From contig JBDRLP010000020.1 of NCBI GenBank assembly GCA_043812975.1, forward strand, positions 1 through 37,683: a stretch of DNA of 37,683 nucleotides, read 5' to 3'. Below are positions 11,100-27,158 of this stretch, piece by piece. Under the pieces are notes generated by a model. The model was not told where the DNA came from and did no database searches. It saw nothing but the letters and a program-made list of their open reading frames with translations. Within the stretch, counting starts at the first letter, position 1, and every line of letters begins with the position of its first letter. Source of the DNA: Candidatus Iainarchaeum sp. (lineage in GTDB: Archaea; Iainarchaeota; Iainarchaeia; Iainarchaeales; Iainarchaeaceae). The translations under genes were made by a program, and so were the position numbers.

Positions 11100-11125
11100 T
11101 AGGCGTTAACCTCATCATTGCCTAT
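11100..11125 (+). repeat. attL-like tyrosine-recombinase site (site 1)
   Basis: TAGGCGTTAA-CCTCA-TCATTGCCTA with dyad arms; 11107-11125 is identical to 23329-23347. Confidence 0.85.
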
Positions 11126-11162
11126 TAGACAATATAGAAGATAAATGATTTAAGCATTGGGT

Positions 11163-12290: not shown

Positions 12291-12350
12291 ATCAATTAAA
12301 TGGTGCTTTTAATATTTAAATAGCATTCTGCTTGCTTTTATTTCTCTACG

Positions 12351-12494: not shown

Positions 12495-12585
12495 TTTTCT
12501 CATCTTCCATAGAAGTTAGTGGAGTTCATAGGAAAACTGTAATAACTATTTATACTATAAAGTATTTATTTGTTTCCTATGCCTT

Positions 12586-13573
12586 GGCGGTGTAGAAATC
12601 CCTAGCAGTATATAAATAACCACAATTTTATTGTTCTGCCAATCTGCTCTAAGTTGTAGGCTATTGCTTTGATTGTTACCTGCTTCTGCTGGTTGTCTGC
12701 TCTGCGAGAGCAGACATAAGAGCCAAGCGTACGTTTGATAGCAGAGTTAACGCTTTCAATCAGGCTTCTGTAGTTGTATTTGTTTTTGTCAAACAGTTTG
12801 GCTGCTTTTTTGCGGTATTTGCTTTTAAGAAACGGCTTTAGGCCAAAGCCTTGCCTATGTTGTTTCCATTCTCTAACCGGAATATGGACTTCGATACCGT
12901 TATCCCAACAGTAACGCCTGTTAGCTTTGCTGTCATAACCTTTGTCTGCAAGAATACAGGACAGACAGTTCTTCAGTTCTCTAACTAGGGGAATAAAGTC
13001 TAGTGTTTCACTCCGATGGTCTGAATGAGTTCTCACGTTCAGAATAAGCTTGGTCTTATTATCGGTCAAAAACACTGTTTTGGTGTAGTTTTTGACTCTT
13101 ACGCCGTCTATTCGTTTGAGGTAGTGGTGTGAGGGGTTAGTGTTTGAGAAGCCTGTTCCGTCAACACTGCCTGTAACATCTTTTAGGTTTAATAGTTTTC
13201 TGCAGGCTCTAACCATCTTCTCAAGCAACGCCTTAGGGGTGCGTTGCACAAACTTTTGAAGGGTAGTGAAGTGAGGGATTCGTTTGATGAACAGCATGCG
13301 TTTGATGTTGTTCTCTTCACAAATCTCAACAAAGCGACGGTATGCTACGTTCAGTTTCTCCCTGTAGCAAATCAAGAACGCCAGCTTGACGTTGCCATAC
13401 ATCTTTTTGGAAAAGTTAGAGTTTGTATTCTTGACTCCAGATAGCTCACAAAGCCTCTCAACTGACTGATAGAAAGTATTAAGTTTAACAGGATACATAT
13501 TCAAATTGATCACCGATAAATAGGAGGCACAACCTCCTATTTATCACTATTTATAAAGGATTTCTACAGAGCC
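12586..13573 (-). mobile_element. IS5-family insertion sequence (IS903-like ends), 988 bp
   Basis: TIRs GGCGGTGTAGAAATCC (12586-12601) and the reverse complement GGCTCTGTAGAAATCC (13558-13573), 14/16 identical; 9-bp TSD CTATGCCTT at 12577-12585 and 13574-13582. Confidence 0.9.
12602..13513 (-). CDS. IS5-family DDE transposase
   Basis: IPHFTTL, VDGTGF, LADKGYDS and YNYRSLIESVNSAIKR (DDE triad and YREK-like signature). Confidence 0.92.
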   Translation of the reverse strand: MINLNMYPVKLNTFYQSVERLCELSGVKNTNSNFSKKMYGNVKLAFLICYREKLNVAYRRFVEICEENNIKRMLFIKRIPHFTTLQKFVQRTPKALLEKMVRACRKLLNLKDVTGSVDGTGFSNTNPSHHYLKRIDGVRVKNYTKTVFLTDNKTKLILNVRTHSDHRSETLDFIPLVRELKNCLSCILADKGYDSKANRRYCWDNGIEVHIPVREWKQHRQGFGLKPFLKSKYRKKAAKLFDKNKYNYRSLIESVNSAIKRTLGSYVCSRRADNQQKQVTIKAIAYNLEQIGRTIKLWLFIYC

Positions 13574-14221
13574 CTATGCCTTTTTTCGTTCTTCCAGCCT
13601 GTTAGCGAGAGCGTGGAGCGTGTATTTGTTCATTCTCAACGGCTTGTTTTTATTGGTCTTTTCATCTTTGGTCTGGAAGATAGAATCAAGTTTGAGCAGG
13701 GCTGCTTCCGGGTGTAAGAATTGGCCTATCATTACCTGCAGGAATGCGTTTTCATCCTCGGTTTTGTTTTTTATGCTCATTAAATAGTGTGCTACTGCGG
13801 ACTGAAAGATTTCGACTATCCCAAACAGGTTGATTTCTTTTAAAAGAAAAGTTTTTCCTCTGAAATAATATTCTGCGAAACCGGGCAGAAATTTCTCAGC
13901 AAAGGGAATAAAGACCCATTTTCCGGATCCTGCGTGTTCCATTTTTCCGTTCCTTATTGTTAGCGAATTGAATTCTATGAAATTAGGTGAATAGATGTAA
14001 GGATTTATGCGGCTTTTTGGCCTATCTGGGTTTTTTGGTTCTCTTGTGATTAGGTTACAATCATTATCCATCAGTTGCATTAAGTAGAGTTGCAGAGTAT
14101 TATATTCTATTTTCAAATGTTTAGCAATGTCGCTTAGCGTCCAATTCCCATTACAGATTGAAAGGAACACGCGCGCCATTCTGTGGCTTTTGTACACTTT
14201 TTTAACTTGCCTTTGAGTCAT
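13574..14221 (-). CDS. wHTH repressor-like protein of the element
   Basis: N-terminal WTLSDIAKHLKIEYNTLQLYLMQL HTH; divergent from an RHH gene. Confidence 0.65.
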   Translation of the reverse strand: MTQRQVKKVYKSHRMARVFLSICNGNWTLSDIAKHLKIEYNTLQLYLMQLMDNDCNLITREPKNPDRPKSRINPYIYSPNFIEFNSLTIRNGKMEHAGSGKWVFIPFAEKFLPGFAEYYFRGKTFLLKEINLFGIVEIFQSAVAHYLMSIKNKTEDENAFLQVMIGQFLHPEAALLKLDSIFQTKDEKTNKNKPLRMNKYTLHALANRLEERKKA

Positions 14222-14291
14222 AGTAAGTCATATCTAACAAAATGCATATAAATAGATAGCATTATTTGAATGTAGTTCTAATTACTTGTAT

Positions 14292-14474
14292 ATGAGCAAT
14301 GCGAAGCAAGTTACAATCACACTGCCAGCCGAGCTAGTGGAAGAATTCAAAGCCTACAAAGCAGCCACCGGCACAAGCTTGTCCGGGCTTTTGCGAGTTT
14401 TATTGAGAGAAAAACTTCGCAGTAGTCAGGGCCAGAGCTTGCTTCAAAAAAATTCAACTACGTCGGAGGGATGA
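14292..14474 (+). CDS. CopG/RHH DNA-binding protein
   Basis: KQVTITLPAELVEEFKAY...SLSGLLRVLLREKL. Confidence 0.8.
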   Translation: MSNAKQVTITLPAELVEEFKAYKAATGTSLSGLLRVLLREKLRSSQGQSLLQKNSTTSEG

Positions 14475-14776
14475 GAATGAAACTACTGAGCAAAAAATTG
14501 TTTCCATTGAAGAACGGCAACCTTTTTGCCATGCTCGAAGTCCAGGGCCGGCAGGGAGACAGAATCAAACTGTCAGAGCAAGGAATTTCAGGACAAGTGA
14601 TTTTCTATAGCGAGGCCCCGAAGAGAAAGTTCAACTGTGTGAATTGCCCAAACGAGGGGGAAATCGAACTGGGCGGCAGCGAGAAGGAAGGCGAGAGAAC
14701 GCTTTATTTGATTGTAGGAAAGAGCGAGGATGGAACGAATGAAGGGGAACGAACTGCGTCATCTGTGCGGAGCTAA
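14471..14776 (+). CDS. Hypothetical protein
   Basis: ATGA coupling to the RHH gene, GGAGG RBS, one CxxC. Confidence 0.55.
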   Translation: MRMKLLSKKLFPLKNGNLFAMLEVQGRQGDRIKLSEQGISGQVIFYSEAPKRKFNCVNCPNEGEIELGGSEKEGERTLYLIVGKSEDGTNEGERTASSVRS

Positions 14777-14945
14777 CTGCACTGTCTGGGTTAATGTCGG
14801 GCGAGAGCAGCCCTTCCACTACACTGGAAGAGTTGTGGACGTTACGGATTCCCTGCTTGTTCTTGTTGACAAAAAGACCGGCCAGAGAATGAATTTCGCC
14901 TTTGCCACCATTGTCAGCATCACGGAGTTGGGTGGTCGGCAGTGA
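14730..14945 (+). CDS. Small Sm/LSm-like beta-barrel protein
   Basis: LRHLCGANCTVWV...YTGRVVDVTDSLLVL...FAFATIVSITE resembles Sm1/Sm2 strand patterns. Confidence 0.55.
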   Translation: MERMKGNELRHLCGANCTVWVNVGREQPFHYTGRVVDVTDSLLVLVDKKTGQRMNFAFATIVSITELGGRQ

Positions 14946-15505
14946 ACTGCGAAAACATTAAGTTTATGAGTAGAAAGACCAAGCTGGCCCAAGTTGATTC
15001 TTTTATGAAGCTAAACAGAGAGGTCTTTGAAAAGAATGATAAGTTGTTGAAAGGCATTAAAACAATGATTAGCGGAGTAGCTCTTACTGATGTAGAAAAG
15101 GAGGCAGACAGGCTCTATGAGCTCATCAAAAAAGAGCGAAAAATTGCATCAATAAAAATACCCGGCCTTTATGACCGAAATTACACGAAGAGACTGTTCA
15201 CAGCGCTTGTTCAAAGGCATTCCGACGTAAAAACAAGGGAAGTGCAAAGAAGAGGAGATAGGAAAAAAATTATTGAGGCATGGCTTGGCGAAGAACCAAA
15301 AGAAAAATTTGCGGACGCAATTGAAGACAGTCTGGAAGCCAAGCTCAAGAAAATCATGGAAGGCTATGTAACAAAACCGCAAATAGCCCAAGCAACGAAC
15401 ATAAGTCTTGAGGAAGCTCAAAAACTAATTAGCAAACTTGTGGCCGAAAAGAAAATAATGCAAAACCCAGAAGGAAACGGCACATTCAAGTGGGTGGAGG
15501 GATAA
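14942..15505 (+). CDS. Helical protein with C-terminal wHTH (possible replication or DNA-binding factor)
   Basis: VTKPQIAQATNISLEEAQKLISKLVAEKKIMQ...GTFKWV; GTGA coupling to the upstream gene. Confidence 0.65.
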   Translation: MNCENIKFMSRKTKLAQVDSFMKLNREVFEKNDKLLKGIKTMISGVALTDVEKEADRLYELIKKERKIASIKIPGLYDRNYTKRLFTALVQRHSDVKTREVQRRGDRKKIIEAWLGEEPKEKFADAIEDSLEAKLKKIMEGYVTKPQIAQATNISLEEAQKLISKLVAEKKIMQNPEGNGTFKWVEG

Positions 15506-15584
15506 AGGATGTCAAGCTATCAAAGACACCTTGACAAGAAGAGCGGGAAAAAAGAGAGCAAAGGAAAGGAAGTATGTGATATCA

Positions 15585-15650
15585 AGGTAGGTTCCCCTAC
15601 CTACCTATACCTACCTTTACAAACTCCTACTATACTACTCCCTAACCTGT
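15585..15650. repeat. CCTAC/TACCTACCT repeat tract (candidate ori or pac region)
   Basis: AGGTAGG-ttcc-CCTACCT palindrome; TACCTACCT at 15598 and 15608; further CTAC copies to about 15640. Confidence 0.55.
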
Positions 15651-15850
15651 CGGGCTATACTGCATACCTTGACAACCACCAACTGAACAGCCAACAGAGA
15701 AAAAGGGCCACTTATCTGCCTGCTGGGAAGCAATTTTTTTCGCAGGAGGGGATTTTTTGAGTAGAGAGGAAAGGATATTGAAAGCCTATGGCTTCCAGTG
15801 GTATTTGGATTTGAAAAGGGAACTTAAGGCAAAAAGAGAGGGGGGATTCG

Positions 15851-16339
15851 ATGGGCAAATGGAAAGGTAGTAAAAAGGATCGACATCAGTTGACGGTTGA
15901 AGACAGGCGAAAGGGCGGCCAGGCTACTACTGAAAGAAAGAAGAAAGCAAATGCGATGAGGTCCTTGAAGACAGGCAAGTATGCGAAGACCTTGGAAGGC
16001 TTTGAGTTCTGCGACAGTTGTCCTTACAAGAATAGCTGCATGGCCTATAAGCCAGGGCGAGCTTGCCCTCTCAGGCACGAGATTTTGAAGCAGATGAACC
16101 TGATTGTGGGGCCAGATGGAGCGCAGGCCTGGCTGAATGTGGTTTTGCGAAGCATGCAGGACCTGTTTATTTTGAGTAAAACAGCTCCAGATCCGAGGCT
16201 TGCCATGGAAAGATACGTAAAGCTGTGGTTGGAATTCGGGAAAATTATGTTCCCGCAAAGGATCAAGATTAGCGGCGAGGATAAGGAAATTAAAGTAATA
16301 TTTGGCGAGGAAGATGAAGATGACAGTAGTGAGGATTAA
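15851..16339 (+). CDS. Putative terminase small subunit
   Basis: Overlaps the TerL start; KGG...NAMRSLKTGKYAK motif, CxxCPxxxxC, helical middle and C-terminal beta strand (KISGEDKEIKVIFG). Confidence 0.6.
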   Translation: MGKWKGSKKDRHQLTVEDRRKGGQATTERKKKANAMRSLKTGKYAKTLEGFEFCDSCPYKNSCMAYKPGRACPLRHEILKQMNLIVGPDGAQAWLNVVLRSMQDLFILSKTAPDPRLAMERYVKLWLEFGKIMFPQRIKISGEDKEIKVIFGEEDEDDSSED

Positions 16340-17543
16340 ATTTCAAGCCCATCCAAAGCAGCAGCAGGTAATCGATTCCCATGCACGGTTCCGATTGCTT
16401 GCAGCTGGCAGAAGGTTTGGAAAAAGTTATCTGGCTTCTGCTGAGGCCATTCGCTTCGCTTTGAAAGAGAAGAGGCAGACGGTTTGGTGCGTTAGCCCAA
16501 TTTATGCGCAGACTCGAAAGCTGTGGAGAATTATCCTGCATCTTTTGCCTTACAAGCTGATTCGGAACGTGAACAGGAGCGAGCTGGCAATAGAGCTAAT
16601 CAACGGCAGTGTTATTTGGTTTAAGTCAGCAGATAATCCTGATAGCCTTAGGGGCGAAGGAATTGATTTTCTGATTTTGGATGAGGCTGCGCTGGTCAAG
16701 AGGGAAAGCTGGGAAGCAGCTCTTAGACCCGCTTTGTCGGACACACAGGGATTGGCATTGTTTATTTCTACTCCTAATTCCTTCAATTGGTTTCACGAGC
16801 TCTACGTCCTGGGCCAGCTGCCAGAGGAAAACGAAATCGAGTCCTGGCAGTTTCCTACAAGCGATTCCCCTTTTATTGATGCTGAGGAAATTAAGAAGGC
16901 TGAGAAGAGCCTGCCACAGATTGTTTTCAGGCAAGAGTATTTGGCTGAGTTCATCGATGAAGCAGGAAGCGTATTCAGGGGAGTTAACGAATGTATTAGT
17001 GGCGAGTTAGAGGGGCCTGATGAAAAAAAGGAGTATGTGATGGGCGCGGATCTGGCCAAGCACCAGGACTTTAGCGTGCTGGTTGTAATGGATGTGGAGA
17101 CAAAGCATGTTGTGGCCTTTCAGAGATTCAATCAGCTGTCCTGGGAGTTTCAGAAATCAAAGATTGTTGCCCTGAGCAAGAAATACCGTAATACAAGAAT
17201 AGTCTTGGATTCAAGCGGAGTGGGCGATCCGATTTATGACGACCTCAGCAGGCAGGATATAGATATTGAATCCTTTAAGTTCACGAACGAATCAAAGGCC
17301 AAACTAATCGAATCGCTTTCGATTGCGATAGAGCAAAAGGAGTTGACATTTCCAAAGATCTCAGAGCTGGTCAATGAGCTGCACGCATTTGGATTTGAGG
17401 TGCTACCTTCAGGCAGAATGCGGTACTGTGCGCCCGGGCACTTGCACGACGACTGTGTTATTGCGCTTGCTCTGGCTTGGAAGGAATGCAAGGACTACCG
17501 CTATGTTGATCCCGAGTACCCAGGGGGCTATCCGATTTACTGA
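16320..17543 (+). CDS. terL: Terminase large subunit
   Basis: HPKQ, Walker A AAGRRFGKS, LRGEGIDFLILDEAA Walker B, ISTP coupling motif, FRQEYLAEF; nuclease GADLAKHQD, LDSSGVG and HDDCVIALALA. Confidence 0.93.
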   Translation: MTVVRIKFQAHPKQQQVIDSHARFRLLAAGRRFGKSYLASAEAIRFALKEKRQTVWCVSPIYAQTRKLWRIILHLLPYKLIRNVNRSELAIELINGSVIWFKSADNPDSLRGEGIDFLILDEAALVKRESWEAALRPALSDTQGLALFISTPNSFNWFHELYVLGQLPEENEIESWQFPTSDSPFIDAEEIKKAEKSLPQIVFRQEYLAEFIDEAGSVFRGVNECISGELEGPDEKKEYVMGADLAKHQDFSVLVVMDVETKHVVAFQRFNQLSWEFQKSKIVALSKKYRNTRIVLDSSGVGDPIYDDLSRQDIDIESFKFTNESKAKLIESLSIAIEQKELTFPKISELVNELHAFGFEVLPSGRMRYCAPGHLHDDCVIALALAWKECKDYRYVDPEYPGGYPIY

Positions 17544-17770
17544 TGAAAAAACAAAGGAGTGAGATAATGGACTGGACTGAAGTGATGCTGCATCTGAGGG
17601 AGCAGGTAAACAAGCGCAAGATAGAGATACCTAACGACAAGCAGTTAATTGACAGCTTGTTGGCTGTGAAGGGCTATCCAGATGGCACAGTGAACACAGC
17701 TACAATAGATGGCCGGGTAAGATCCCTCGCATTGGCAATCTGGGCCACGAGAAAAAGGCAAAAAGAGTAG
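17543..17770 (+). CDS. 75-aa protein resembling the TerL C-terminal segment
   Basis: KRKIEIPNDKQLIDSL...IDGRVRSLALAIW parallels TerL EQKELTFPKISELVNEL...HDDCVIALALAW. Confidence 0.55.
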   Translation: MKKQRSEIMDWTEVMLHLREQVNKRKIEIPNDKQLIDSLLAVKGYPDGTVNTATIDGRVRSLALAIWATRKRQKE

Positions 17771-17793
17771 GTTTTTCAGTGGAAATGTACCAC

Positions 17794-17832
17794 CGAAAAG
17801 TATATTAATAATGGGATACATATTGGGATACA
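17794..17832 (+). promoter_or_regulatory. BRE/TATA promoter with TGGGATACA direct-repeat operator
   Basis: CGAAAAG-TATATTAA followed by TGGGATACA at 17812-17820 and 17824-17832. Confidence 0.6.
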
Positions 17833-17862
17833 GGAGAATGTTTTTTTAGAGGAGTGATTTTT

Positions 17863-18126
17863 ATGCCAAAAAAAACTTACGAACGACACATGAAGGAAGT
17901 CAATGCTCTGCCCAAAGAAGAAAGAGAGCAGGAGCTTCGGATCAGAGTCGACCAAGCAATCATCAACAAACTCAAAGAATTCAAAAAAGAGCTGGACGCG
18001 CCAAGCTATAAAAGCGCGCTGAGGACGTTGCTGGGTGTAAAAGAGAACGAGCCTGTGGTTGAAAAAGCCATCGCAAGGATACAGGAAAATATCGACAAAG
18101 AGAAAAAGCGGAAAGGGGGGAAATAA
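17863..18126 (+). CDS. RHH-like DNA-binding protein
   Basis: ELRIRVDQAIINKLKEFKKELDAPSYKSALRTLL; GGAGTGA RBS before ATG 17863. Confidence 0.6.
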   Translation: MPKKTYERHMKEVNALPKEEREQELRIRVDQAIINKLKEFKKELDAPSYKSALRTLLGVKENEPVVEKAIARIQENIDKEKKRKGGK

Positions 18127-18127
18127 G

Positions 18128-18757
18128 ATGGTCGAGTATAAAGAACTTAACGAAGCACTGCGAGGATCAGATAAGTGGGTTGATGCTCACAAACGAACTG
18201 ATGCCAGCGATGCTAATGTTTACGAGCAAGCAGCCCAAAGAATTAAAGACCTAAACGAGGTTGAAGCGGAGCAAGAACAACGGCTTACCGAGCTAGAGAT
18301 AAAACTTGAAAAGAAAAGCCGGGTTGACAGCAAAGAACAGCTTTTGAGAGAAAAGAAAATGCTAAGAAAATCCATTGCAGGGCACAAAGCAGATCTTGCT
18401 GAACTGGACAAGAAAGAGTACGAGTTGCGGGAAACGCTGGCTGGCGACTCGCGTTCGAGGAAACTCTTTCAGATCGATTCAGCCGATAGCGAGATCGGAA
18501 AGCTCAAGGCCGCTCGCATGAATGTGTACGAACGTGCACACGGTTTGGAAGACAAAGGCCCTATATCTGAGGGGCGGATGAAAGGACATTCTGTTGTAAG
18601 TGACTCTTTGAGAAACTCTGGCAGAAACCGAAGCACAAGAATAAGCGGAAAAATGCTGTGCAATGACGGCCTGGATCCTGAAGTCGATGCGTTGAAACAA
18701 AAGAGGCAGAACATTTACGAAGACGCGCAAAAGAAACGCGCGAACCGATGGAGTTGA
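18128..18757 (+). CDS. Coiled-coil protein (scaffold-like)
   Basis: Long charged heptad-rich helix; sits between terminase and a cement-like gene, where scaffolds usually lie. Confidence 0.5.
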   Translation: MVEYKELNEALRGSDKWVDAHKRTDASDANVYEQAAQRIKDLNEVEAEQEQRLTELEIKLEKKSRVDSKEQLLREKKMLRKSIAGHKADLAELDKKEYELRETLAGDSRSRKLFQIDSADSEIGKLKAARMNVYERAHGLEDKGPISEGRMKGHSVVSDSLRNSGRNRSTRISGKMLCNDGLDPEVDALKQKRQNIYEDAQKKRANRWS

Positions 18758-18763
18758 TGCGTG

Positions 18764-19213
18764 ATGCCCGAAAGTTATGACCTGAATCCTAGTAACGCCG
18801 AGAACGAGAAAGTAGCCGTTCCATCTTTCAAGATGAAGGCTGAGGAAGACATTCCTTTTGGCAAGCTCATTTCAAGAGGAGCGGCTGAAACAGTGAAGCT
18901 AACAAGCAGCAACGAAGACAAGGTTTTGGGAGTCGGGGCCCAATATGCAGCAACCCGAGTAGACAAGCCAACAGGATACAACAAGAGCCAAGAGGTTATA
19001 GTGAAGGCCTTGCTCCCTGGCAAAATCTATCTTTTGTGTGCTGCAATAGCAGTCGGCAACGATGAATATGTATGCTGCACAGCTGATGGCAACATTGAAG
19101 AAATTAAGCCAGATCCAGAGAACAGTTACAAAATAATCGGAGTGAGTTTAGAGTCCATTGAGGCTGGTGCTTGGGGGAAAGGTTCTCATAAAGTAAAGAT
19201 AAGAAAAACTTGA
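18764..19213 (+). CDS. Capsid cement/decoration-like protein (DUF2190-like)
   Basis: KAEEDIPFGKLI...VLGVGA...EVIV...IAVGNDEYV..ADG...IIGVSLE repeated beta pattern typical of head decoration proteins. Confidence 0.55.
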   Translation: MPESYDLNPSNAENEKVAVPSFKMKAEEDIPFGKLISRGAAETVKLTSSNEDKVLGVGAQYAATRVDKPTGYNKSQEVIVKALLPGKIYLLCAAIAVGNDEYVCCTADGNIEEIKPDPENSYKIIGVSLESIEAGAWGKGSHKVKIRKT

Positions 19214-19234
19214 CGTAGGTGGTGGCAACTTGGT

Positions 19235-19573
19235 TCATTCAAAATCTTTTTTTCTTAGTGGAACTCCCCATTGAACAGAAAAATTTGCTCTTTCGAGGAC
19301 TTCTACTTTCGAAAACACTTTTAGTTTAGGGCTTGTCTTTATACTGTGGACGATATATAAAAACCAGTTCGGTTGTTTTTGAAGCGCTTTGATATTGTTT
19401 TCATTTAATAGGACAAACCCGTTTTTACCGCCCAAGCCTTTTACTTCTATTTGTCTATCATCGGACAAGATATCGTAACCACTTCCTTGTTTTAGCTCTT
19501 TTGGTTTTCTTCCTTGTTCCTTCTCATAAGCTAGAACAAATTCAATGGCTTTTCTTTCAACTTCTCTTTTCAT
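19235..19573 (-). CDS. DUF3883 (NOV C-terminal-like) PD-(D/E)xK nuclease domain protein
   Basis: VERKAIEFVLAYE...GYDILS..RQIEVKG...LNENN...WFLYIV. Confidence 0.8.
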   Translation of the reverse strand: MKREVERKAIEFVLAYEKEQGRKPKELKQGSGYDILSDDRQIEVKGLGGKNGFVLLNENNIKALQKQPNWFLYIVHSIKTSPKLKVFSKVEVLERANFSVQWGVPLRKKDFE

Positions 19574-20579
19574 GTTTATCACTTGAAATTTCTTCAGATT
19601 GCTTGTCCAATTTTCTGACAATCTCAAGTTCCTGTTCAATGTTCTTTTCAAGGTCGTTGTAGGTTAGTATTTGAATGTGCGGCCTGAGATGGAAATTAAT
19701 CTCTCTGAGCAGGCGTTGTTCCTCTTCCAGCAGGTTATAGCCAATCACAATGTAGCCGGTTGCTTTCTGGACGCCATAGGTTCCCTCTTCATTGATATTA
19801 CTATAAACGTCAGTTTTCCTTAGGTAAACTATTAGCTCACTCAGGCCATCTGCAAGTTCCGAGGACATTCCGAGCCGCTGGGTTTTTGTCCTTCTCACAA
19901 ATGGTTTGACATGCGGGCTTTTGAATTCGAAGACCCTGTCTTGGTTGTACTTAGTTTTTACGTGCATGTCAACCTGTGCCTGTGCATCAATGTTCAGGTT
20001 CTTTGCTTCAACCGAGCACTCAAGACCAAGTAGCCAAGAACATTGCTTTATTTTTTCCTTTATGTCATCTTCTTTTCCTTTTCCTTCTTTTATGCTTTCT
20101 TCGATCATTGATTTAAAGCTGTCAAAGTCTTTTTTAAAGTCCTCTGCTTTGCCCTTGACTTTCTTTGCTAGCTCAAGCTTTTTCTGGTAATCCTCGCTTT
20201 TCTGCATTTCCTTGTCAAGCTTTTGTTTTGTAACCGCCAGCTCTTCAGTCAAGGAATCAAGCTTTGTTTCCAAGTACTCTATTTTTTCATCTCCTGTGCG
20301 GATTCTCTTCCCAAACAGGTTGAAGTAGAGTTTCTTGACAGTTTTCAAAAACCAGCTAAGCCAAGATGGCAGGTCAAGGTCTTCATCAATCCAGATTGTT
20401 CTACCATAACGCGGGTTCTTCATGTAATCGACTTTTTTCCCCATTCTAAAGGCAATGCCACGCGTGCCATCCTTTCTTTCAAGTATTGTTGCTTCACTGA
20501 CTTTGTTGTCAGATTCCCATACTTCTGATTCTCCTAACGCCTTGAAAACAGGCTGTTTTTTCTCTTTTGGCTTTGTCAT
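19557..20579 (-). CDS. Shedu (SduA/DUF4263)-like nuclease with coiled-coil N-terminal region
   Basis: WLLG...VDM...FEFKSP...ELADGLSEL..Y...GYIVIG...LREIN...IQILTYNDL C-terminal pattern. Confidence 0.7.
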   Translation of the reverse strand: MTKPKEKKQPVFKALGESEVWESDNKVSEATILERKDGTRGIAFRMGKKVDYMKNPRYGRTIWIDEDLDLPSWLSWFLKTVKKLYFNLFGKRIRTGDEKIEYLETKLDSLTEELAVTKQKLDKEMQKSEDYQKKLELAKKVKGKAEDFKKDFDSFKSMIEESIKEGKGKEDDIKEKIKQCSWLLGLECSVEAKNLNIDAQAQVDMHVKTKYNQDRVFEFKSPHVKPFVRRTKTQRLGMSSELADGLSELIVYLRKTDVYSNINEEGTYGVQKATGYIVIGYNLLEEEQRLLREINFHLRPHIQILTYNDLEKNIEQELEIVRKLDKQSEEISSDKHEKRS

Positions 20580-20757
20580 AGGAAACTCCACATTGCTATT
20601 TATTTACCTCATAGAAACTTTTAAAACAACAATCAGGCCGTATTGTTAGTATGATTGAAAGACAGTGCGATTGCGGAAAAACAGTCAAAGCGCATAGCGA
20701 AAATCAGATGCAGACTAATTGGTATATTCACATTACTTGCCACAAAAATCACTTGTG

Positions 20758-21024
20758 ATGAACATGAACGAAAGGCAATGGGAAGTATTGGCAATAGCCC
20801 TTTTTTTACTGGGTTTTATATTTATATTCCAAGACAACACAATGTCCCTCCCTTGTCTCAATAACTTTGAAGAGCAATTAAATGATCAAAATCTGTTCCT
20901 GAACTGTACAATCCTTTCAGAAATCTATGACCCATTCATATGGCTTACTTTCATTCTTGGAATAACCTTTGCAGTCTGCGCATGGTTTGAAAAGCTTGAA
21001 AGAAACAAAAGCAAAATAGCTTGA
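20758..21024 (+). CDS. Small two-TM membrane protein
   Basis: Two hydrophobic helices with a Cys pair in the loop. Confidence 0.55.
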   Translation: MNMNERQWEVLAIALFLLGFIFIFQDNTMSLPCLNNFEEQLNDQNLFLNCTILSEIYDPFIWLTFILGITFAVCAWFEKLERNKSKIA

Positions 21025-21086
21025 AAGGCAAGCCTGCTTAAACAATTCTTTATAAATGTAATCAAATACAATTATTTTGAGAATCT

Positions 21087-21812
21087 ATGACCCTGATTGT
21101 TTGCGCTAAAGGTATTGATGGGATGGTTTTTGCTTCAGATAGCAGAGGAACTTTTGGCGATCCAAGAGGCATAACAGCCAGAAACGACACTATGCGCAAA
21201 ATATTCAAACTGAATAATCAATGTATATTATTAATGTCAGGCTCAGCAGAGCTTGGAGAAACAATATTGGAAGAAATTCAGAGACAGATTTCTACCCAAA
21301 AGTTAAAAAATATAGATAAAGTAGTTGAGTGCGCTGTGAATAAATTCCGAGCGAAATATAATGAATGGTTTCCACAATTTCAGCCGAACCAAAGACCCAT
21401 GTTAGGTATTATTATCGGAGGATATGAAGTCGATAAAAAGAAGAAGCAATCTTGTAAGCCAAAAATTTTTTCAATGATGAGCCCATTAAATTTTGCACCT
21501 GGCTTACACAACTACGGGTTTGCTCTACATGGCGTTCCACAATATGCATTATACTTGTTGAATACGCTTTACTCTGACCGAATGAAAATAAATCAATTAA
21601 AACAACTGCTGGCGTATGTTATAACAGAGACCGCTTCGCAAGATGGAAAAGTAGGGGGCCCAATTCAGATGGCGGTTCTCAAAAAGGATGATTGTACGAT
21701 TCTATCAAGAAAGGAAATCGAAAGAATTATTAAGAGGAATGAGGCTAATAAAGTCAGACTTAGAAAATTATTTTTTGGTGAAAAAAAGCATGGAAAAAAA
21801 GGAAAAAATTAG
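21087..21812 (+). CDS. Proteasome-beta/HslV-like Ntn hydrolase without propeptide
   Basis: M-T1-LIV...ASDSR (Asp17/Arg19)...RKIFKL...MSG...QDGKVGGPIQMAV. Confidence 0.82.
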   Translation: MTLIVCAKGIDGMVFASDSRGTFGDPRGITARNDTMRKIFKLNNQCILLMSGSAELGETILEEIQRQISTQKLKNIDKVVECAVNKFRAKYNEWFPQFQPNQRPMLGIIIGGYEVDKKKKQSCKPKIFSMMSPLNFAPGLHNYGFALHGVPQYALYLLNTLYSDRMKINQLKQLLAYVITETASQDGKVGGPIQMAVLKKDDCTILSRKEIERIIKRNEANKVRLRKLFFGEKKHGKKGKN

Positions 21813-21930
21813 GATAATTAAAGGGCCTCTCCCATACGCAAAAGGAGACCTAAAAAAAGTGTCCAACAAAGAGTATGAAACTTATTACAAATTCTTCGAA
21901 ATAACTACCAGGCTAGATATAGTAGAGTGA
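21790..21930 (+). CDS. 46-aa hypothetical peptide overlapping the Ntn hydrolase stop
   Basis: ATG 21790 preceded by GGTGA; MEKKEKIRIIKGPLPYAKGDL... Confidence 0.4.
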   Translation: MEKKEKIRIIKGPLPYAKGDLKKVSNKEYETYYKFFEITTRLDIVE

Positions 21931-21960
21931 TTATTTTCTAAAATTTAATTACCTTCTTTT

Positions 21961-23259
21961 TTATTTTGCTTTAGCAGCCAATATTTTTGCTATTTCTCCT
22001 AGGTCCACTCCTTTCTTTTCAAGCTCTTGATTTATCATTTCCTGCAACTTGTTCATGTGCTCTGCTTTCTTTTCCATCGCCTTGAGCTGCTCAATATGCA
22101 GGGGCTTGCCGCACTTGTTGCAGTATTCGCTGGATTTGATGTTTTGAGCAGAGCAGAAAGGACAGTTAATGGTCTGGCTTGTCAGGGGCTCGTCCTCTTT
22201 CTTGTCCGGCTTCCAGATTCCCTTTTCGACCAGGATTTCTTTTTTCAGGTTTTGGTTTGCGAAGTGAACATAGATTGATGGCATTGTGCTTTGCTTGCTC
22301 CAACCGTACTTGATGCGGAGCTTTGCTTCGTTGTATCCTTTGACTGTGTCCCTCGTTGCAGCGCTGTGCCTGAAGCCATGAGTCCAAACTCTCTTCTTTA
22401 TATTCGCTCTTTTTGCTATGTATTTCAATCGTATGTTTAGCAGGTCACGGGAAAGAACTTTGTCGCCTATCTTTTTATGTGGTCCTAAACCGCCTCGAAC
22501 GAAAGCAAGCCAGATATAGTCTTGTAGGTTCTTTGGAACTTGCCTTTTTCTTTCCTCCAGTTCGAAGAGCCATGCTTCCAGAAATGGCTTGCTCTCAACA
22601 AGAATAACTTCTCGTTTCCCTGTTTTGCCATCAACTTCGAATTCGAGATAGTTCTCTTTTATTTTAAGATCTGATTTTTTCATGTCAAGCAGTTCGGAAG
22701 CACGCAAGCCGTATTCCCATAGGACGGCAATCAGTGCTTTGTCTCTTGTGGTCTTTGCGCTTTTGAGCATCCTGCTTACTTCTTCTGCTGTAAGGATTTC
22801 CTTTTTGAATTTGTCCCAAGACTTGCCGTTTTTGTTTCCAAGACGTTTTATCCAGCGAACTGATTCTGGTGGAGTATCATCGCTTTCCTTGCCGAACAGC
22901 CATCTGTAGAATGTTTTGACTGCGGCCTTCATCTGCCAGAGAGTATTCTCGCTGTAGGATTCAATAGGGATTTTAATTACTGCCCCGTGCTGTGTTTTCA
23001 GAATCCTATCTTCTGGTTTGAGGTTGTTGAAGAAGGAAACCATTTCGGTTTTGCTGATTGCTTCAAACTTTTTCTTTGGAAAGGCTTCGCCTAAGCGGAC
23101 AAGAATGCGTATAACGTAGGGATAGCTTGTTTTCTTTACTCCTTGGGCTACCTTTTCATCAAAGTATTCTTGAACCTTGCGTTTATTGCACGGCAGCATG
23201 CAAGAATTAGCGAGCTTTTTGAGGGCCGATTCAACGTTATAGTTGTCTTTTGCGTTCAT
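21961..23259 (-). CDS. int: Tyrosine recombinase/integrase with C-terminal zinc ribbon
   Basis: GLRASEL (R), DGKTG (K), HGFRH (HxxR), GW...MPSIYVH (W, Y); CPFC...CNKCG; starts 70 bp from the attR repeat. Confidence 0.93.
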   Translation of the reverse strand: MNAKDNYNVESALKKLANSCMLPCNKRKVQEYFDEKVAQGVKKTSYPYVIRILVRLGEAFPKKKFEAISKTEMVSFFNNLKPEDRILKTQHGAVIKIPIESYSENTLWQMKAAVKTFYRWLFGKESDDTPPESVRWIKRLGNKNGKSWDKFKKEILTAEEVSRMLKSAKTTRDKALIAVLWEYGLRASELLDMKKSDLKIKENYLEFEVDGKTGKREVILVESKPFLEAWLFELEERKRQVPKNLQDYIWLAFVRGGLGPHKKIGDKVLSRDLLNIRLKYIAKRANIKKRVWTHGFRHSAATRDTVKGYNEAKLRIKYGWSKQSTMPSIYVHFANQNLKKEILVEKGIWKPDKKEDEPLTSQTINCPFCSAQNIKSSEYCNKCGKPLHIEQLKAMEKKAEHMNKLQEMINQELEKKGVDLGEIAKILAAKAK

Positions 23260-23321
23260 GCTTAACTATAGTTTGGCATGAAAGTCTTTTTAAATATAAC
23301 TATATCTTCTATGTTGTCCTA

Positions 23322-23347
23322 TAGTTGATAACCTCATCATTGCCTAT
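23322..23347 (+). repeat. attR-like site (site 2)
   Basis: TAGTTGATAA-CCTCA-TCATTGCCTA; 19-bp identity with site 1; 23301-23324 is an inverted copy of 11122-11145. Confidence 0.85.
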
Positions 23348-23392
23348 AGATGTGTAGTTGTACTGTTACTTTAACAAGTTTGTGTGAACTGC

Positions 23393-23848
23393 TTACTCTA
23401 GGCTGAATATGATGCTTATTTCAGTGTACCCAGAATTCTCTTCGCTAGCTGCAATAGTGACAATAGTAGTCCCTCGCCCTGCTTTCTCTGCTGCAATCAT
23501 TCCCATACTGGAACTTATTACTGTCCAACCATTTGTTGGCAACTGTGTCTCGTAAAAAGCTTCAACTGTGTCAGTACTTGCCGAGGTTAGATAGACGACG
23601 ATAATATTTCCCGGAGCTGCTCCTGGTATAGGTCCATGGTGGATTCTGACTGACCCAGAGTATCGTGGTATATCTGAGATGTCTTCCCCTACAACGTCTG
23701 CTGTTGGTATTTGTTGTCCTACCTGCTGCAGAGTAAATGAGGGAGCCCCTCCTAGTCCTTCGCCTTCTGGTTGAGTGCATCCACTGATAAGAATAGTTCC
23801 AATAACTGCTAGTACAAAAATTCCCGGAACTAATATTTTGTTTTTCAT
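23393..23848 (-). CDS. Lipoprotein flanked by att-like sites
   Basis: Lipobox ISGC; DIPRYSGS...VEAFYETQL..NGW pattern. Confidence 0.75.
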   Translation of the reverse strand: MKNKILVPGIFVLAVIGTILISGCTQPEGEGLGGAPSFTLQQVGQQIPTADVVGEDISDIPRYSGSVRIHHGPIPGAAPGNIIVVYLTSASTDTVEAFYETQLPTNGWTVISSSMGMIAAEKAGRGTTIVTIAASEENSGYTEISIIFSLE

Positions 23849-23930
23849 GATAAGTTACATGGTTTTAATCCTTAAAAACATTTTGATTTTAGCTAAGGGT
23901 TGAGTTGTATAACCCTTCCCGAAGGCCATA

Positions 23931-23954
23931 AGGCGTTAACCTCATCATCGCCTA
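23931..23954 (+). repeat. Third att-like site (site 3)
   Basis: AGGCGTTAACCTCATCATCGCCTA, 23/24 identical to 11101-11124. Confidence 0.85.
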
Positions 23955-23972
23955 AGATATGAGGGGGTGTTG

Positions 23973-25076
23973 CTAATCGTTTTCAATAACAATTGTTTCA
24001 GCCGGATAGTCGGGATTTATATCAAATTCTATATCGATGTTTTCCATGCTGTTGTTTCTAAGGATTACTTTTCCTTCTGCCTCTTCATACAGGGAATTTC
24101 CAAGAAAAAGGATTGCAGTTGAAAGTTTTTCAAAAACATTATCTTCAATAGTTGGATATGCGTTTTTATATACAACAATGCCAAGTCTTCCTTTGAAAGG
24201 ATCTGGTTGTATCTCTGGATTTTCCACGTGGAAATAATTTCCTTTGATTATAGCAGAACCGCCTGCATAATCAATCCCTTCATGACCGCAATTGTATATC
24301 TCATTATCTAATATCTGCGGACTGACTTGATTAGAATGGCCAACACAAATACAACAGGTTAAACTATTTCTAATAATATTATTAGATAAAACAACATCAG
24401 AACTATGTTGAATCTGAATATTTCCTTGGGCGTATTCAACAATTGCATATTCTAATCTTCCATGAACGATATCTATTCCTCTCCAATCATGAGTTGTAGG
24501 ATTTTCACTGTCAGAAGTAAATATAATCCTGTTATCAGCAGTCCCAACTGCATTTAATGTACCTCCTATGTAAATAGTAATTTTTTCTTTTTCATAAAAA
24601 GGAGGATCCTTAGGAAAATTATTTGGATCAGTTATTGGCTCATCACTTCCTTTATGTTGATCATCAGTTAAAGCTACTTTAATTACAGTTCCGGGTAATA
24701 TTGTTAAATTTACTCCTTCTATCACATCTATATCTCCTGTAACATGACTTGTCCCGCCCCCTACTTCATCTTTATTTAAAACACCGCTTTTTACACAGTC
24801 ATCTGCACATTCTTCATAAGTTTCTCCAGGTTCGCATATACCATTTCCGCAGCAAGGAGCTATTTGAGAATAAGAACAATTATAATCAATACAATCTTTG
24901 GTAAAACAAGTCTTATCTGGGCAATCTTCTTTAATGTTGCATTCTTTTTCTTCTGTAACTTTACTTATTATTTCAGGGCTGCTTTCTTCCCCGAGTTTCC
25001 CTGTTTCTTTTACACATCCGCTTAACAAAAAAACCGTAGCGAGTAATCCTATTAAAAGAATCTTTTGCATATACAA
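23973..25076 (-). CDS. Lipoprotein with Cys-rich module and parallel beta-helix repeats
   Basis: Lipobox LSGC; CCGNGICEPGETYEECADDC; LTILPGTVI...GTADNRIIFTS...WRGI; NNIIRN/DNEIYN/DNVFE repeats. Confidence 0.8.
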   Translation of the reverse strand: MYMQKILLIGLLATVFLLSGCVKETGKLGEESSPEIISKVTEEKECNIKEDCPDKTCFTKDCIDYNCSYSQIAPCCGNGICEPGETYEECADDCVKSGVLNKDEVGGGTSHVTGDIDVIEGVNLTILPGTVIKVALTDDQHKGSDEPITDPNNFPKDPPFYEKEKITIYIGGTLNAVGTADNRIIFTSDSENPTTHDWRGIDIVHGRLEYAIVEYAQGNIQIQHSSDVVLSNNIIRNSLTCCICVGHSNQVSPQILDNEIYNCGHEGIDYAGGSAIIKGNYFHVENPEIQPDPFKGRLGIVVYKNAYPTIEDNVFEKLSTAILFLGNSLYEEAEGKVILRNNSMENIDIEFDINPDYPAETIVIEND

Positions 25077-25122
25077 TCTACCGCGCTGCTAACAAACAAT
25101 TCTAAAATGCGACTTATTTAAA

Positions 25123-25794
25123 TTACTTGCCCTGCGTGCTCTGCAAACAGTTTTGTTTTTGATCGCTGTTTGTTATGTTGTCGCAGTACGAAGGATCGTT
25201 GAAGCGGCGTGCCATATCCAAATAGCAGTTATCCTTTTGGTTAAGATTTTGCATTTCACCGCAGAGAGTTGCTTCCCCTAGCTGATTAGCTAGATTGTTA
25301 TAGCAATTATCTTTAGTGTTGATATTCTTAATTTTACCGCAGACGGAACCGTCCATTTTATTCTGTGCATACTGCTGATAACATTGGTCTTCTTCGGGTG
25401 CTGCTTCAAAGCATAGATCGGGGTCGCCTTTTACTCCCGCAATTATTCCATAACAGCCAGGGCGACTGTCTCTACTTACTTTTTTACACAAAGAAACGTC
25501 CTCATATTTTCCGGCAATCCCTATTATGCACATATCCTCAAGCGAAGCTTGCTGAATTACTGGCATCCCTATGCAAACTTCCAATTCTTGTTCAAGTGTC
25601 AGTTCCACTGCCTCGACTACTTCAGCAACCTCTGCTACTGGACATAGAGCTTGATCTGTTACGACTGTTCCATTAGAGCATACATACTGAGTTATTGTTA
25701 CTGGTGGTGGTTGTGCACAACCCAATAAAAATACACTTATGCCTAATATCAGAAATATATATAGTTTATTCATGAACACTTCTTTTTTATTCAT
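25123..25794 (-). CDS. Cys-rich repeat lipoprotein
   Basis: Lipobox LLGC; repeated D...C..I.....KD.CY...A units. Confidence 0.78.
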   Translation of the reverse strand: MNKKEVFMNKLYIFLILGISVFLLGCAQPPPVTITQYVCSNGTVVTDQALCPVAEVAEVVEAVELTLEQELEVCIGMPVIQQASLEDMCIIGIAGKYEDVSLCKKVSRDSRPGCYGIIAGVKGDPDLCFEAAPEEDQCYQQYAQNKMDGSVCGKIKNINTKDNCYNNLANQLGEATLCGEMQNLNQKDNCYLDMARRFNDPSYCDNITNSDQKQNCLQSTQGK

Positions 25795-25917
25795 CTAATA
25801 CCCTTTTTGCATTTATTTACTGTAATTAACCTATTATCCTATTTAAACTTTTCTATAGCAATGCAGAGGACGTGCCCAAGCTTTTTCGAACATTTATTCC
25901 TCCTTTTTGTGCAAAGC

Positions 25918-25988
25918 CGCAATTCGAATCAAAAACCATTTTTGTAGTTCTAATTTGCTTTTCAAAGTGTATTCAGGTTTGTTGGAAT
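25918..25988 (+). repeat. 71-bp imperfect direct repeat, copy 2
   Basis: Ungapped match to 10066-10136, 59/71 identical. Confidence 0.85.
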
Positions 25989-26024
25989 AACATTTTTATG
26001 GAGTAAGATCATTATTTTGTTAAT

Positions 26025-26426
26025 ATGCCTGTTCGTCCACATCTTCAAAGATTCAGAGAACGCATTAAAATACCTAGAAAGGGAGGCTTTGCAGTAATCA
26101 ATAATTTTTATAAGCGAGTGAATGCATTTTCTGAAGGGGTTTCTCAAGAATTGAGAGTTCAGCCTCCTGAAATTCATTCTTTAGCTGATTTTGAAAAGGT
26201 TAATCGCCGACTTATTAAAATTAGGAAGAAAGTATATGAATTTGGAACAGAAGGCAGGGAATTATATGATGGTTTTGACCCAATATCTAGAACCCAATCC
26301 AGAGGAAAACTAGAGTTTAATAGAATGGAGGACTGTGAACATAGTTTACATACTTGCATAAGATTGATTGAATCCTGGGCCATAAATATTGAACATCAGA
26401 AACGGCGTTTGAGTAGAAATAAATAA
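26025..26426 (+). CDS. Hypothetical helical protein with Arg-rich termini
   Basis: 133-aa ORF filling the gap; MPVRPHLQRFRERIKIPRK start. Confidence 0.6.
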   Translation: MPVRPHLQRFRERIKIPRKGGFAVINNFYKRVNAFSEGVSQELRVQPPEIHSLADFEKVNRRLIKIRKKVYEFGTEGRELYDGFDPISRTQSRGKLEFNRMEDCEHSLHTCIRLIESWAINIEHQKRRLSRNK

Positions 26427-26428
26427 AC

Positions 26429-26848
26429 TTACCTGAATTCGAGTTTTGCCTTGTTTTGGGTTAAGGTTTCGATTGCTTTCTCTAAGTGTTCTGGTGAAGC
26501 TGATAATTTCTTTGAATCATGGGCGTTTATTATTACTTTTATTTTGACCCCGCTTGGTTCATACACTTCATTAACGCCTAATAACCTTACATTGCCTATT
26601 AGGTCTGCAATCACTTTTTTGGAGTTATTTGAATGCTCAACAACTCTTATTTTGGAGTTAAGTTCTTTGCTTAATTCAGCTACAATAATGCCATTTCTGC
26701 CTATTAACGAGCCTATTTTGCCGTTGCATGATATTATTGTGATTTCAGGCAGTTCTATAGCTTTGTGAAAGTCCACGTCTGAGAATAAGAATTTTTTTCT
26801 TGCTTTTTCAAAAGCCTTCTTTACTTTTTCATCCAGTTCTTTTCCCAT
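26429..26848 (-). CDS. KH-domain protein, archaeal NusA-like
   Basis: IGSLIGRNG (GxxG KH loop)...KIRVVE. Confidence 0.75.
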   Translation of the reverse strand: MGKELDEKVKKAFEKARKKFLFSDVDFHKAIELPEITIISCNGKIGSLIGRNGIIVAELSKELNSKIRVVEHSNNSKKVIADLIGNVRLLGVNEVYEPSGVKIKVIINAHDSKKLSASPEHLEKAIETLTQNKAKLEFR

Positions 26849-26885
26849 GGAAATAATAGGAAAAAACTTGTTATAAACTGTTTTT

Positions 26886-27158
26886 TTACTTTTTCAATAG
26901 GATTTCTATTGATGAAACTTTCAGGTTTGTATCATCGTCTGCTTTGAGTTCTTCTGTGTATATTTTGATATCGTGAGCCTTTATTTCATTCATAAATTTG
27001 TTTTTTACTATTTCAGCAACATCAACTGCTCTTGAAATTGCCTTGCCTCTTGCTTTCAGGGTTACTTCTGTGTTTCCCTTGTTCATCTGCATTATTACTG
27101 CCATTACATAAACCATTGTGCTTTTTTTGCCAATGAAAACAGTGTTGTCGTCTCCCAT
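26886..27158 (-). CDS. albA: DNA/RNA-binding protein Alba
   Basis: VFIGKK..M.YV...LKARGKAISRAVDVAEIV...VSSIEI.L. Confidence 0.96.
   Translation of the reverse strand: MGDDNTVFIGKKSTMVYVMAVIMQMNKGNTEVTLKARGKAISRAVDVAEIVKNKFMNEIKAHDIKIYTEELKADDDTNLKVSSIEILLKK

Follow-up and report, generated by a model that had tools for sequence, protein, structure and literature searches.

Partial copies of a box C/D small RNA gene as putative attachment sites for stacked gene modules in Iainarchaeales

Contig JBDRLP010000020.1 of Candidatus Iainarchaeum sp. (assembly GCA_043812975.1), here called the window (the whole stretch analysed, 37,683 nucleotides), carries three copies of a 24-bp sequence that delimit a 12.2-kb integrase-bearing element and, next to it, a 608-bp stretch with a single lipoprotein gene. 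The question raised by this locus is what the repeated sequence represents and how the DNA between its copies came to be stacked. A first-pass annotation had seen in it a possible integron- or pdif-like array that would shuffle surface-protein cassettes. Our analysis indicates that the 24-bp site corresponds to the terminal stem, the C box and the first 12-nt guide of a box C/D small RNA (sRNA) gene lying on the minus strand. The locus is probably the outcome of serial site-specific integration (accretion) at an attachment (att) site derived from that gene, with the 608-bp stretch as a module resembling a cis-mobilizable element (CIME) beside a defective provirus.

The repeated site and its parent sRNA gene

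The 24-bp pattern AGGCGTTAACCTCATCATYGCCTA was found on the plus strand at 11101-11124 (site 1, 0 mismatches), 23323-23346 (site 2, 3 mismatches) and 23931-23954 (site 3, 0 mismatches), all in direct orientation, while none of 100 dinucleotide shuffles contained any match to it (chance expectation 0). Sites 1 and 3 differ by a single T/C (23/24 identical), and sites 1 and 2 have an identical 19-bp block in common (TAACCTCATCATTGCCTAT). The three direct copies claimed in the first-pass annotation, including the degree of identity between the outer two, are thus confirmed, and its AAGGGTT/AACCCTT inverted repeat was likewise found, at 23895-23917; the right flanks of sites 2 and 3 do resemble each other, as it noted, but only weakly. 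At no more than 1 mismatch, the 18-bp core of the site (TAACCTCATCATYGCCTA) has no further copy in the 1.24-Mb assembly beyond those in the window, and allowing 2 mismatches adds a fourth one, on contig C68, within a canonical sRNA gene. A transfer RNA (tRNA) as the target was ruled out, since ARAGORN finds no tRNA at the sites.

Alignment of the sequences from 26 relatives yielded the sRNA consensus AGGC-AAUGAUGA-GGUUAACACCUN-CUGA-(short hairpin)-AUGAUGA-UUUAACUCAACN-CUGA-GCC. Read along the minus strand, the gene opens with GGC, the C box AUGAUGA, the 12-nt guide GGUUAACACCUN, the D′ box CUGA and a short hairpin, and its 3′ half consists of a UGAUGA-like C′ box, a 12-nt guide with AACUCAAC, the D box CUGA and GCC. 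The C box is present in 26 of the 26 aligned relatives, the D box is CUGA or a one-base variant of it, and GGC and GCC make up a terminal stem; the internal D′ and C′ boxes with their 12-nt guides are present both in the family consensus and in the C68 copy. The left flank of the core is conserved too in many relatives' loci. This C/D sRNA is conserved across the Iainarchaeales (DPANN), and the genes for fibrillarin (272 bits) and Nop5 (205 bits) are both located on contig C2 of the genome studied here.

A covariance model (R1), built from the sequences of the 26 relatives with those of the own genome left out, found four places in this genome, the next matches having E values of at least 0.09. 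The canonical copy (C68:3297-3386) scored 53.3 bits and has canonical boxes, whereas the three copies in the window are more or less incomplete. At window positions 23891-23953 the model aligned at full length (model positions 1-63; 49.9 bits), at the site 1 copy (11035-11123; 38.9 bits) with its 5′ half alone, and at the site 2 copy (23275-23345; 27.4 bits) with its 5′ part alone.

The full-length copy at 23891-23953 (minus strand) holds both site 3 and the inverted repeat, and is degenerate. Its C box AUGAUGA is intact and followed by guide 1 GGUUAACGCCUU, but the D′ box reads AUGG, the C′ box is degenerate, and guide 2 UACAACUCAACC ends on a D box CUUA instead of CUGA, so that this copy departs from the family at both the D box and the D′/C′ boxes. 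The first-pass annotation had placed here the upstream region of the lipoprotein gene; such a region is present between the sites, but it is this degenerate sRNA copy with the inverted repeat inside it. Site 3 itself (23931-23954, plus strand) forms the upstream end of the array, with its core embedded in the degenerate copy. At the downstream end, site 1 (11090-11124, minus strand) is part of a truncated copy that runs through the C box, guide 1 and the D′ box CUGA and then passes into unrelated sequence, while site 2 (23323-23346, plus strand) retains nothing beyond the C box and the first part of the guide. With respect to the provirus-like element, site 1 is attL and site 2 attR.

In box C/D guide RNAs, the methylation target lies at the fifth pair from D′ or D (the N+5 rule). 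Guide 1 pairs with the genome's own 23S ribosomal RNA (rRNA) at C12:4280-4290 and guide 2 at C12:4309-4318, in both cases with mispairs limited to G-U. Aligned to an Escherichia coli 23S copy, N+5 from D′ falls on the equivalent of A-loop U2552 and N+5 from D on that of G2581 (E. coli numbering, with a 4-nt offset inferred from the length of the 23S copy used). The sRNA is predicted on these grounds to guide 2′-O-methylation in the peptidyl-transferase region of 23S rRNA, and its core would be conserved across families because it is part of a guide RNA aimed at the peptidyl-transferase centre. Both window copies at sites 1 and 3 have a G instead of an A at the N+5 pair of guide 1, which gives a G-U at the predicted methylation position.

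A second sRNA-like copy follows directly after the canonical gene on C68, the two together lying within C68:3297-3520 (L140). Its second guide and D box (…AACUCAACCCUGAGUCC) are those of the canonical gene, but its 5′ half is different and degenerate, and it looks like a tandem relic at the true gene.

A provirus-like element and a 608-bp module between the sites

Between sites 1 and 2 lies a virus-like element of 12.2 kb (11125-23322), which contains genes for a methyltransferase, an insertion sequence (IS) DDE transposase, a terminase large subunit, a virion/cement protein, a Shedu SduA-like protein, a proteasome/HslV-like protein and an integrase. Because no portal or major capsid protein was recognised in it, the element is probably a defective provirus. 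The tyrosine integrase (432 aa; 21961-23259, minus strand; PF00589, 6.3e-18; PHROG integrase) has a C-terminal zinc ribbon, and its gene is located directly downstream of site 2 in the same direction as the sRNA. A 70% identical homologue occupies the same position beside a core in genome G047 (L039:7223-8515). The best annotated relatives of the window's integrase from archaeal viruses and plasmids are 23-30% identical, with no Thermococcales integrases among the top matches listed.

The element thus has an integrase at one end and direct repeats of part of the target gene at both, as integrative elements do. Since the site is the 5′ part of a C/D sRNA gene, its copies can be regarded as duplicated pieces of an integration target, as with tRNA-linked islands. 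The element furthermore carries an arm at either end, CTATTAGACAATATAGAAGATA at site 1 (11121-11142, plus strand) and its inverted partner TATCTTCTATGTTGTCCTATAG at site 2 (23301-23322, plus strand), which are complementary at 19 of 22 positions. The arm at site 1 includes a TATA-like box, from which the recombinant sRNA copy would be transcribed. Arms of this type also occur beside cores in five related genomes (G038, G007, G113, G074 and G069).

The stretch between sites 2 and 3 is a one-gene unit, as the first-pass annotation had proposed. The two sites bracket 608 bp in which the interval 23347-23930 contains one non-nested open reading frame (ORF) of at least 50 aa only, the lipoprotein gene (23393-23848, minus strand; 151 aa), whose product has an N-terminal signal peptide with the lipobox-like motif LISGC. 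This interval between the site 2 and 3 cores is without a recombinase gene, and the integrase-bearing element abuts it. Our best reading of the unit is an integrase-less, CIME-like module, with a putative att function for site 3; recombination between sites 1 and 3 would, as anticipated earlier, take the lipoprotein gene along with the element.

Either site has a flank of its own kind. That of site 2 (23347-23392, minus strand) is promoter-like, with the TATA-like sequence TTAAAG about 25 nt upstream of the core, and flanks of this type recur beside many relatives' cores; it may act as a promoter. The upstream flank of site 3 (AGATATGAGGGGGTGTTGCTA...; 23955-23990, minus strand) is of the type that adjoins full sRNA genes and has a near-identical counterpart at the sRNA in G049, a genome of another family.

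The lipoprotein has few homologues, 3 among 5.8 billion clusters of proteins. A blastn comparison of the 584-bp cassette with this genome and with the loci retrieved from relatives revealed no second copy. Three metagenomic loci (L163:1659-3351, L164 and L166) display one gene order, in which lipoprotein relatives come after genes of matching size; in L163, the only one of these loci that was Pfam-scanned, the relative is directly downstream of lspA (signal peptidase II; Peptidase_A8) and lgt (prolipoprotein diacylglyceryl transferase; LGT). Because the relatives follow lspA/lgt-type genes and have no core nearby, the family fits a chromosomal origin. The idea of the lipoprotein gene as a recurring cassette was rejected, as it has few homologues, none of them in the order, and its metagenomic relatives are without a core. 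All three loci are on low-GC contigs, and the linkage of lipoprotein-maturation genes to a likely substrate would be notable if these contigs are archaeal. In public sequencing runs, none of which contained more than 0.18 of the sampled words, X1, X2, X6 and X9 yielded short fragments only; those matching the cassette were exact in X1 (23482-23648) and X6 (23644-23794) and showed 1 difference in X9 (23776-23926).

Two further genes of the provirus-like element deserve mention. The IS-type DDE transposase (12602-13513, minus strand) has a 55% identical paralogue on contig C3, and insertion of this IS probably contributed to the element's disablement. The protein with a Shedu SduA C-terminal domain (PF14082, 1e-9; 19557-20591, minus strand) represents a defence gene on a DPANN mobile element.

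Core arrays in related genomes and the island in this one

The core is widespread among relatives, all genomes considered being metagenome bins. At no more than 1 mismatch it was present in 23 of 61 related genomes, with 0 for the reversed control, and at no more than 2 mismatches in 90 of the 196 genomes of the order, with about 240 matches versus 17 for the reversed control. The sites often form direct arrays, with 2-6 of them at intervals of 0.4-9 kb. In a contig scan, 36 of the 80 matches listed have archaeal titles, and the non-archaeal ones listed look like bacterial chance matches or mis-binned contigs. The core was also present on seven contigs from Falkowbacteria or Chloroflexi bins (L061, L073, L106, L109, L116, L128 and L129); three of these (L073, L106 and L116) contain the full Iainarchaeal sRNA and are therefore probably mis-binned archaeal contigs. 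A scan of IMG/VR yielded 1 match, in an AT-rich, coding-like stretch without sRNA features, and no free attP form; in the absence of such features, this match was discarded as an attP candidate and treated as chance.

Arrays were compared across 20 loci from 14 genomes, the window included. In this set, 42 of 43 adjacent core pairs are in direct orientation, and the spacing between cores ranges from 365 bp to 12.2 kb. Most inter-core units are small (27/42 measure 2.3 kb or less) and many have one intact gene, the 608-bp unit being the third smallest. Where a full sRNA remainder is present, it stands at the downstream end of the array in the direction of the sRNA, and a TATA-like box, presumably a promoter, is found about 22-30 nt upstream of each core. 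Within the 42 units, 84 ORFs are co-oriented with the sRNA versus 44 in the opposite orientation (78 versus 31 when the provirus is excluded). Unoccupied sRNA genes exist as well, in G004, in G005 and on contig C68 of the genome studied here.

The cargo of these arrays was examined by Pfam annotation of 86 ORFs at 10 relatives' loci. It is typical of a flexible genome and includes a YoeB-type toxin pair, Fic/DOC proteins, AAA_14-DUF4143 ATPases, HNH, methyltransferase and Ham1 proteins and a U32 peptidase, next to transport and metal functions (ArsR-ArsP, ZnuABC-NikR, ABC transporters, a P-type ATPase and a Na/H exchanger). With toxin-antitoxin, Fic, ATPase, transporter and metal-resistance genes among the relatives' cargo, the surface-protein shuffling suggested by the first-pass annotation does not hold as a general description. 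Relatives do carry core arrays with modules, which supports part of its reading, but only 1 of the 10 scanned loci has an integrase, that of G047. In G038, a complete genome with two arrays, the sole integrase match is a 290-aa Xer-like protein 0.9 Mb away. Genome G113 contains three full sRNA copies on three contigs (L141-L143), each heading an array and with 14 cores in total, and its guide RNA gene seems to have been multiplied by elements.

Evidence on what the cores do comes from modules that genomes of different families have in common. A Fic module in G040 and G069 is 82.6% identical over 1056 bp, the identity extending through promoter and core and then stopping. A He_PIG module in G007 and G128 (91.9% over 2173 bp) has cores on both sides in both genomes, with neighbours that differ, and identity also ends at a core for an ABC fragment in G047 and G074 (89.1%), an HNH module in G040 and G113 (84.6%) and an ArsR-ArsP module in G042 and G047 (81.4%). 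Judging from these breakpoints, the cores behave as recombination junctions.

Several loci in addition appear to preserve stages in the decay or joining of elements. G038 contains an integrase-less mini-element of 868 bp that has both arms of the window's element and a methyltransferase gene only, while one site in G113 carries the two arms on either side of one core, the arrangement that a junction between tandem elements would produce. Some integrase-less units retain the integrase-proximal arm (core 4009 of L040 versus core 7142 of L039), which suggests that at least some modules are deletion derivatives of integrase-bearing elements. Modules that open with a full sRNA remainder are found in G128 (L148, cores 4255 and 5925) and in G049 (L032, core 11318); such a module could arise when excision captures the sRNA remainder together with its downstream chromosomal neighbour.

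In the genome studied here, the array is part of a larger insertion. The region 10072-26430 (16.4 kb) is replaced by short DNA in four congeners (about 0.2-0.4 kb in G003, G004 and G002, and 2.4 kb in G005), which identifies it as a strain-specific island. G003, G004 and G002 join window position ~10071 to ~26430-26880, and in G003 the segments 9700-10071 and 26431-26899 are contiguous but for 290 unrelated bases. What is absent from these four congeners is the entire 16-kb island, not the element by itself. Besides the array and a 223-aa ORF, the island contains three lipoprotein genes. Since these encode lipobox-type signal peptides (10226-11068, Cys-rich, 280 aa; 23393-23848, 151 aa; 23973-25076, a 367-aa beta-helix protein), predicted surface lipoproteins are enriched in it. 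A 71-bp direct repeat marks its left border (10066-10136, plus strand) and recurs, 83% identical, about 440 bp inside the right border (25918-25988, plus strand). This repeat, of which the genome holds no other copy, bears no relation to the sRNA core; a second insertion mechanism of another kind could have left it behind as a scar.

Explanations for the array and comparison with known systems

The reading that we consider probable is one of accretion, in which a family of tyrosine-integrase elements would use the 5′ stretch of the sRNA gene as attB, with an attP made up of a promoter and a copy of the sRNA 5′ part. Integration would rebuild the sRNA behind the element-borne promoter and leave the displaced promoter and a core ahead of the genes that came in; further rounds of integration, with integrase genes being lost afterwards, would then produce direct-repeat core arrays that separate gene modules. 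Read in the direction of the sRNA, the window would accordingly consist of a native-type promoter with site 3, the 608-bp module (a degenerate sRNA remainder and the lipoprotein gene), a promoter with site 2, the 12.2-kb provirus, a promoter with site 1, and a truncated sRNA stub, an order that agrees with the usual layout of the arrays. Any present-day recombination of the 608-bp unit would need an integrase in cis or in trans, a possible mobiliser being the neighbouring element by way of site 1 x site 3 or site 2 x site 3. As to how the module may have arrived, candidates are a small circle acted on in trans, a captured piece of chromosome and the remnant of a larger element.

A more tentative view is that of gene capture anchored, across the Iainarchaeales, on the gene of the A-loop methylation guide, integron-like but with no resident integrase. 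Some of the small modules would have been acquired from chromosomes along with a copy of the sRNA, each insertion would pass the displaced promoter and its C-box leader to the newly captured genes, integrases of passing proviruses or plasmids would insert, excise and exchange modules between families, and the lipoprotein unit would be a live cassette. It seems unlikely to us that there is a dedicated integron-like system, with small circular cassettes of 1-3 genes bearing sRNA-like sites, expressed from displaced sRNA promoters and moved by integrases in trans, so that the lipoprotein unit would be one such cassette and the provirus an intruder. The small, often single-gene units (27/42 of at most 2.3 kb), their occurrence in different families with core breakpoints and differing neighbourhoods, the co-orientation of ORFs, the TATA-like box before every core and the persistence of arrays in genomes without a close integrase would all suit such a system. 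However, the arrays have no integrase fixed next to them, the site is part of a target gene and not a structured site of the attC type, and integrase-less units with one or both element arms look like deletion derivatives; no free circles were found in the IMG/VR scan (with its 1 chance-like match), and the relatives of the lipoprotein gene are not cassette-borne.

We also regard it as improbable that the 608 bp are merely a decayed remnant of a larger tandem element, which the first-pass annotation had named as a refutation of its own reading, or a foreign chromosome piece (an sRNA gene with its downstream lipoprotein gene), with an inert site 3. Decay of elements is visible in relatives, and the sRNA copy at site 3 is itself degenerate, but its core, unlike the decayed remainder of the copy, has 0 mismatches to the consensus, the lipoprotein gene is intact, and the layout with the remainder first recurs in G128 and G049. 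The foreign nature of the whole region, the near identity of the site 3 flank to the sRNA flank of G049 and the normal residence of the lipoprotein family in a chromosomal lspA-lgt neighbourhood would nevertheless agree with such an origin. Hardly any credence can be given to the repeats as a promoter or leader motif common to unrelated genes (an L7Ae-binding C-box leader, for example) with no role as recombination sites. Cores do stand upstream of, and co-oriented with, many ORFs, each preceded by a TATA-like box, but they cluster beside full sRNA genes and not genome-wide, they bracket an integrase-bearing provirus with inverted arms, and homology between genomes breaks at them. In C/D ribonucleoproteins, moreover, a C box alone is incapable of a kink-turn.

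Accretion at an sRNA-derived site nonetheless has to be weighed against a number of observations that run counter to it. The target copy in the window is not a working sRNA gene, and with a stub at site 1 and a degenerate copy at site 3 the array stands on decoy or pseudo copies within the island. The canonical gene on C68 is uninterrupted, its core ending in GTCC versus GCCTA, and the island borders carry the 71-bp repeat, not the sRNA core. The sRNA itself is known from its sequence and not as an RNA; an Rfam scan of the window (E of at most 1) found only tRNA-Ile and no family matching it, so that it belongs to no curated family. The lipoprotein gene has 0 real homologues in the 195 other genomes of the order, where the lone match is to the signal peptide only, and the fetched flanks (up to 3 kb) of 10 metagenomic loci with lipoprotein relatives contain no core, which means that the module has not been seen to move. 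The short contigs from X1, X2, X6 and X9 include no joint between sites 1, 2 and 3 and are uninformative on excision. Finally, the co-orientation bias of the ORFs is only moderate, and since the genomes are metagenome bins, mis-assembly at repeats is conceivable.

Integration into stable RNA genes is textbook knowledge for tRNA and transfer-messenger RNA (tmRNA), and the routes of gene exchange in DPANN archaea are poorly known. The 18-bp core and model R1 provide a searchable marker for the flexible genome of DPANN archaea, in which 1-Mb genomes gather transporter, toxin-antitoxin, Fic and defence genes at a single locus. Because targeting of the 5′ end would swap promoters, it offers a testable route to the expression of captured genes. 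A conserved sRNA has been identified along the way, predicted to guide A-loop methylation, and for annotation, repeated partial copies of it are better read as att scars than as sRNA genes.

Integrons have intI with an adjacent attI and the promoter Pc at the head of the array, and their attC sites are imperfect palindromes with a shared fold and differing sequence, while pdif modules are delimited by 28-bp XerC/XerD sites in alternating orientation. The arrays described here resemble both in their small, mostly co-oriented modules, their short conserved site and the involvement of tyrosine recombinases. They differ from integrons in having no intI/attI/Pc platform (9 of the 10 Pfam-scanned relatives' loci are without an integrase) and in sites that share sequence (the 18-bp core) with no palindromic attC-like fold, and from both in that each module has its own promoter-like flank and the site itself comes from a host RNA gene, of which it is a piece. 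Without such a platform or attC the system is not an integron, and with sites in direct orientation it is not a pdif array. The integron/pdif-like interpretation of the first-pass annotation thus survives in part, namely in the cores that act as junctions, the module arrays of relatives and the breakpoints, but not as a dedicated integron or pdif system; the system is integron-like in outcome and neither of the two in kind.

A closer parallel is found in CIMEs, which are att-flanked, recombinase-less modules beside an integrase-bearing element such that recombination between the outer sites moves both, as in accretion of the streptococcal ICESt1/ICESt3 type of integrative and conjugative elements (ICEs). 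Here too, a recombinase-less, att-flanked module shares its att site with an integrase-bearing neighbour, although the host is an archaeon, the neighbour is virus-like and not conjugative, the att site is derived from an sRNA gene, and mobilisation is putative.

In mechanism, the integrases of the pTN3-like group from Thermococcales come nearest. According to the relevant passages of a 2021 review of archaeal tyrosine recombinases (PMC8371274), they use the 5′ half of a small stable RNA gene as attB, the replacement 5′ part comes with the element, so that the RNA is expressed from the integrase-side promoter of the element, and direct repeats of the target piece flank the element. Within archaea, those passages describe insertion into the 5′ half of RNA genes with exchange of the promoter for pTN3-like integrases at tRNA genes only (PMC8371274). 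The target is in our case a box C/D sRNA gene and not a tRNA gene, and the integrase, at 23-30% identity to its best relatives, is likened to this group by mechanism and not by phylogeny. The terms sRNA, snoRNA and DPANN have 0 occurrences in the text of that review (PMC8371274), and full-text literature searches turned up no publication that describes a box C/D sRNA gene in such a role. A guide RNA gene as a recurrent, order-wide docking site is thus absent from the 2021 review (PMC8371274).

The overall architecture has its counterpart in the tycheposons of Prochlorococcus, in which, as described in the relevant part of the source (10.1101/2020.12.28.424599), successive integrations at an RNA gene push older elements inward. 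Common to both are streamlined genomes, modules separated by partial copies of the target gene, integrase-less remnants, and cargo for nutrient or metal uptake and defence (10.1101/2020.12.28.424599). Tycheposons differ in using seven tRNA genes as targets and another integrase family, and promoter exchange at the 5′ end does not belong to that system as described there (10.1101/2020.12.28.424599). With these differences, the stacking of modules at the sRNA gene of Iainarchaeales resembles that of bacterial islands at tRNA genes.

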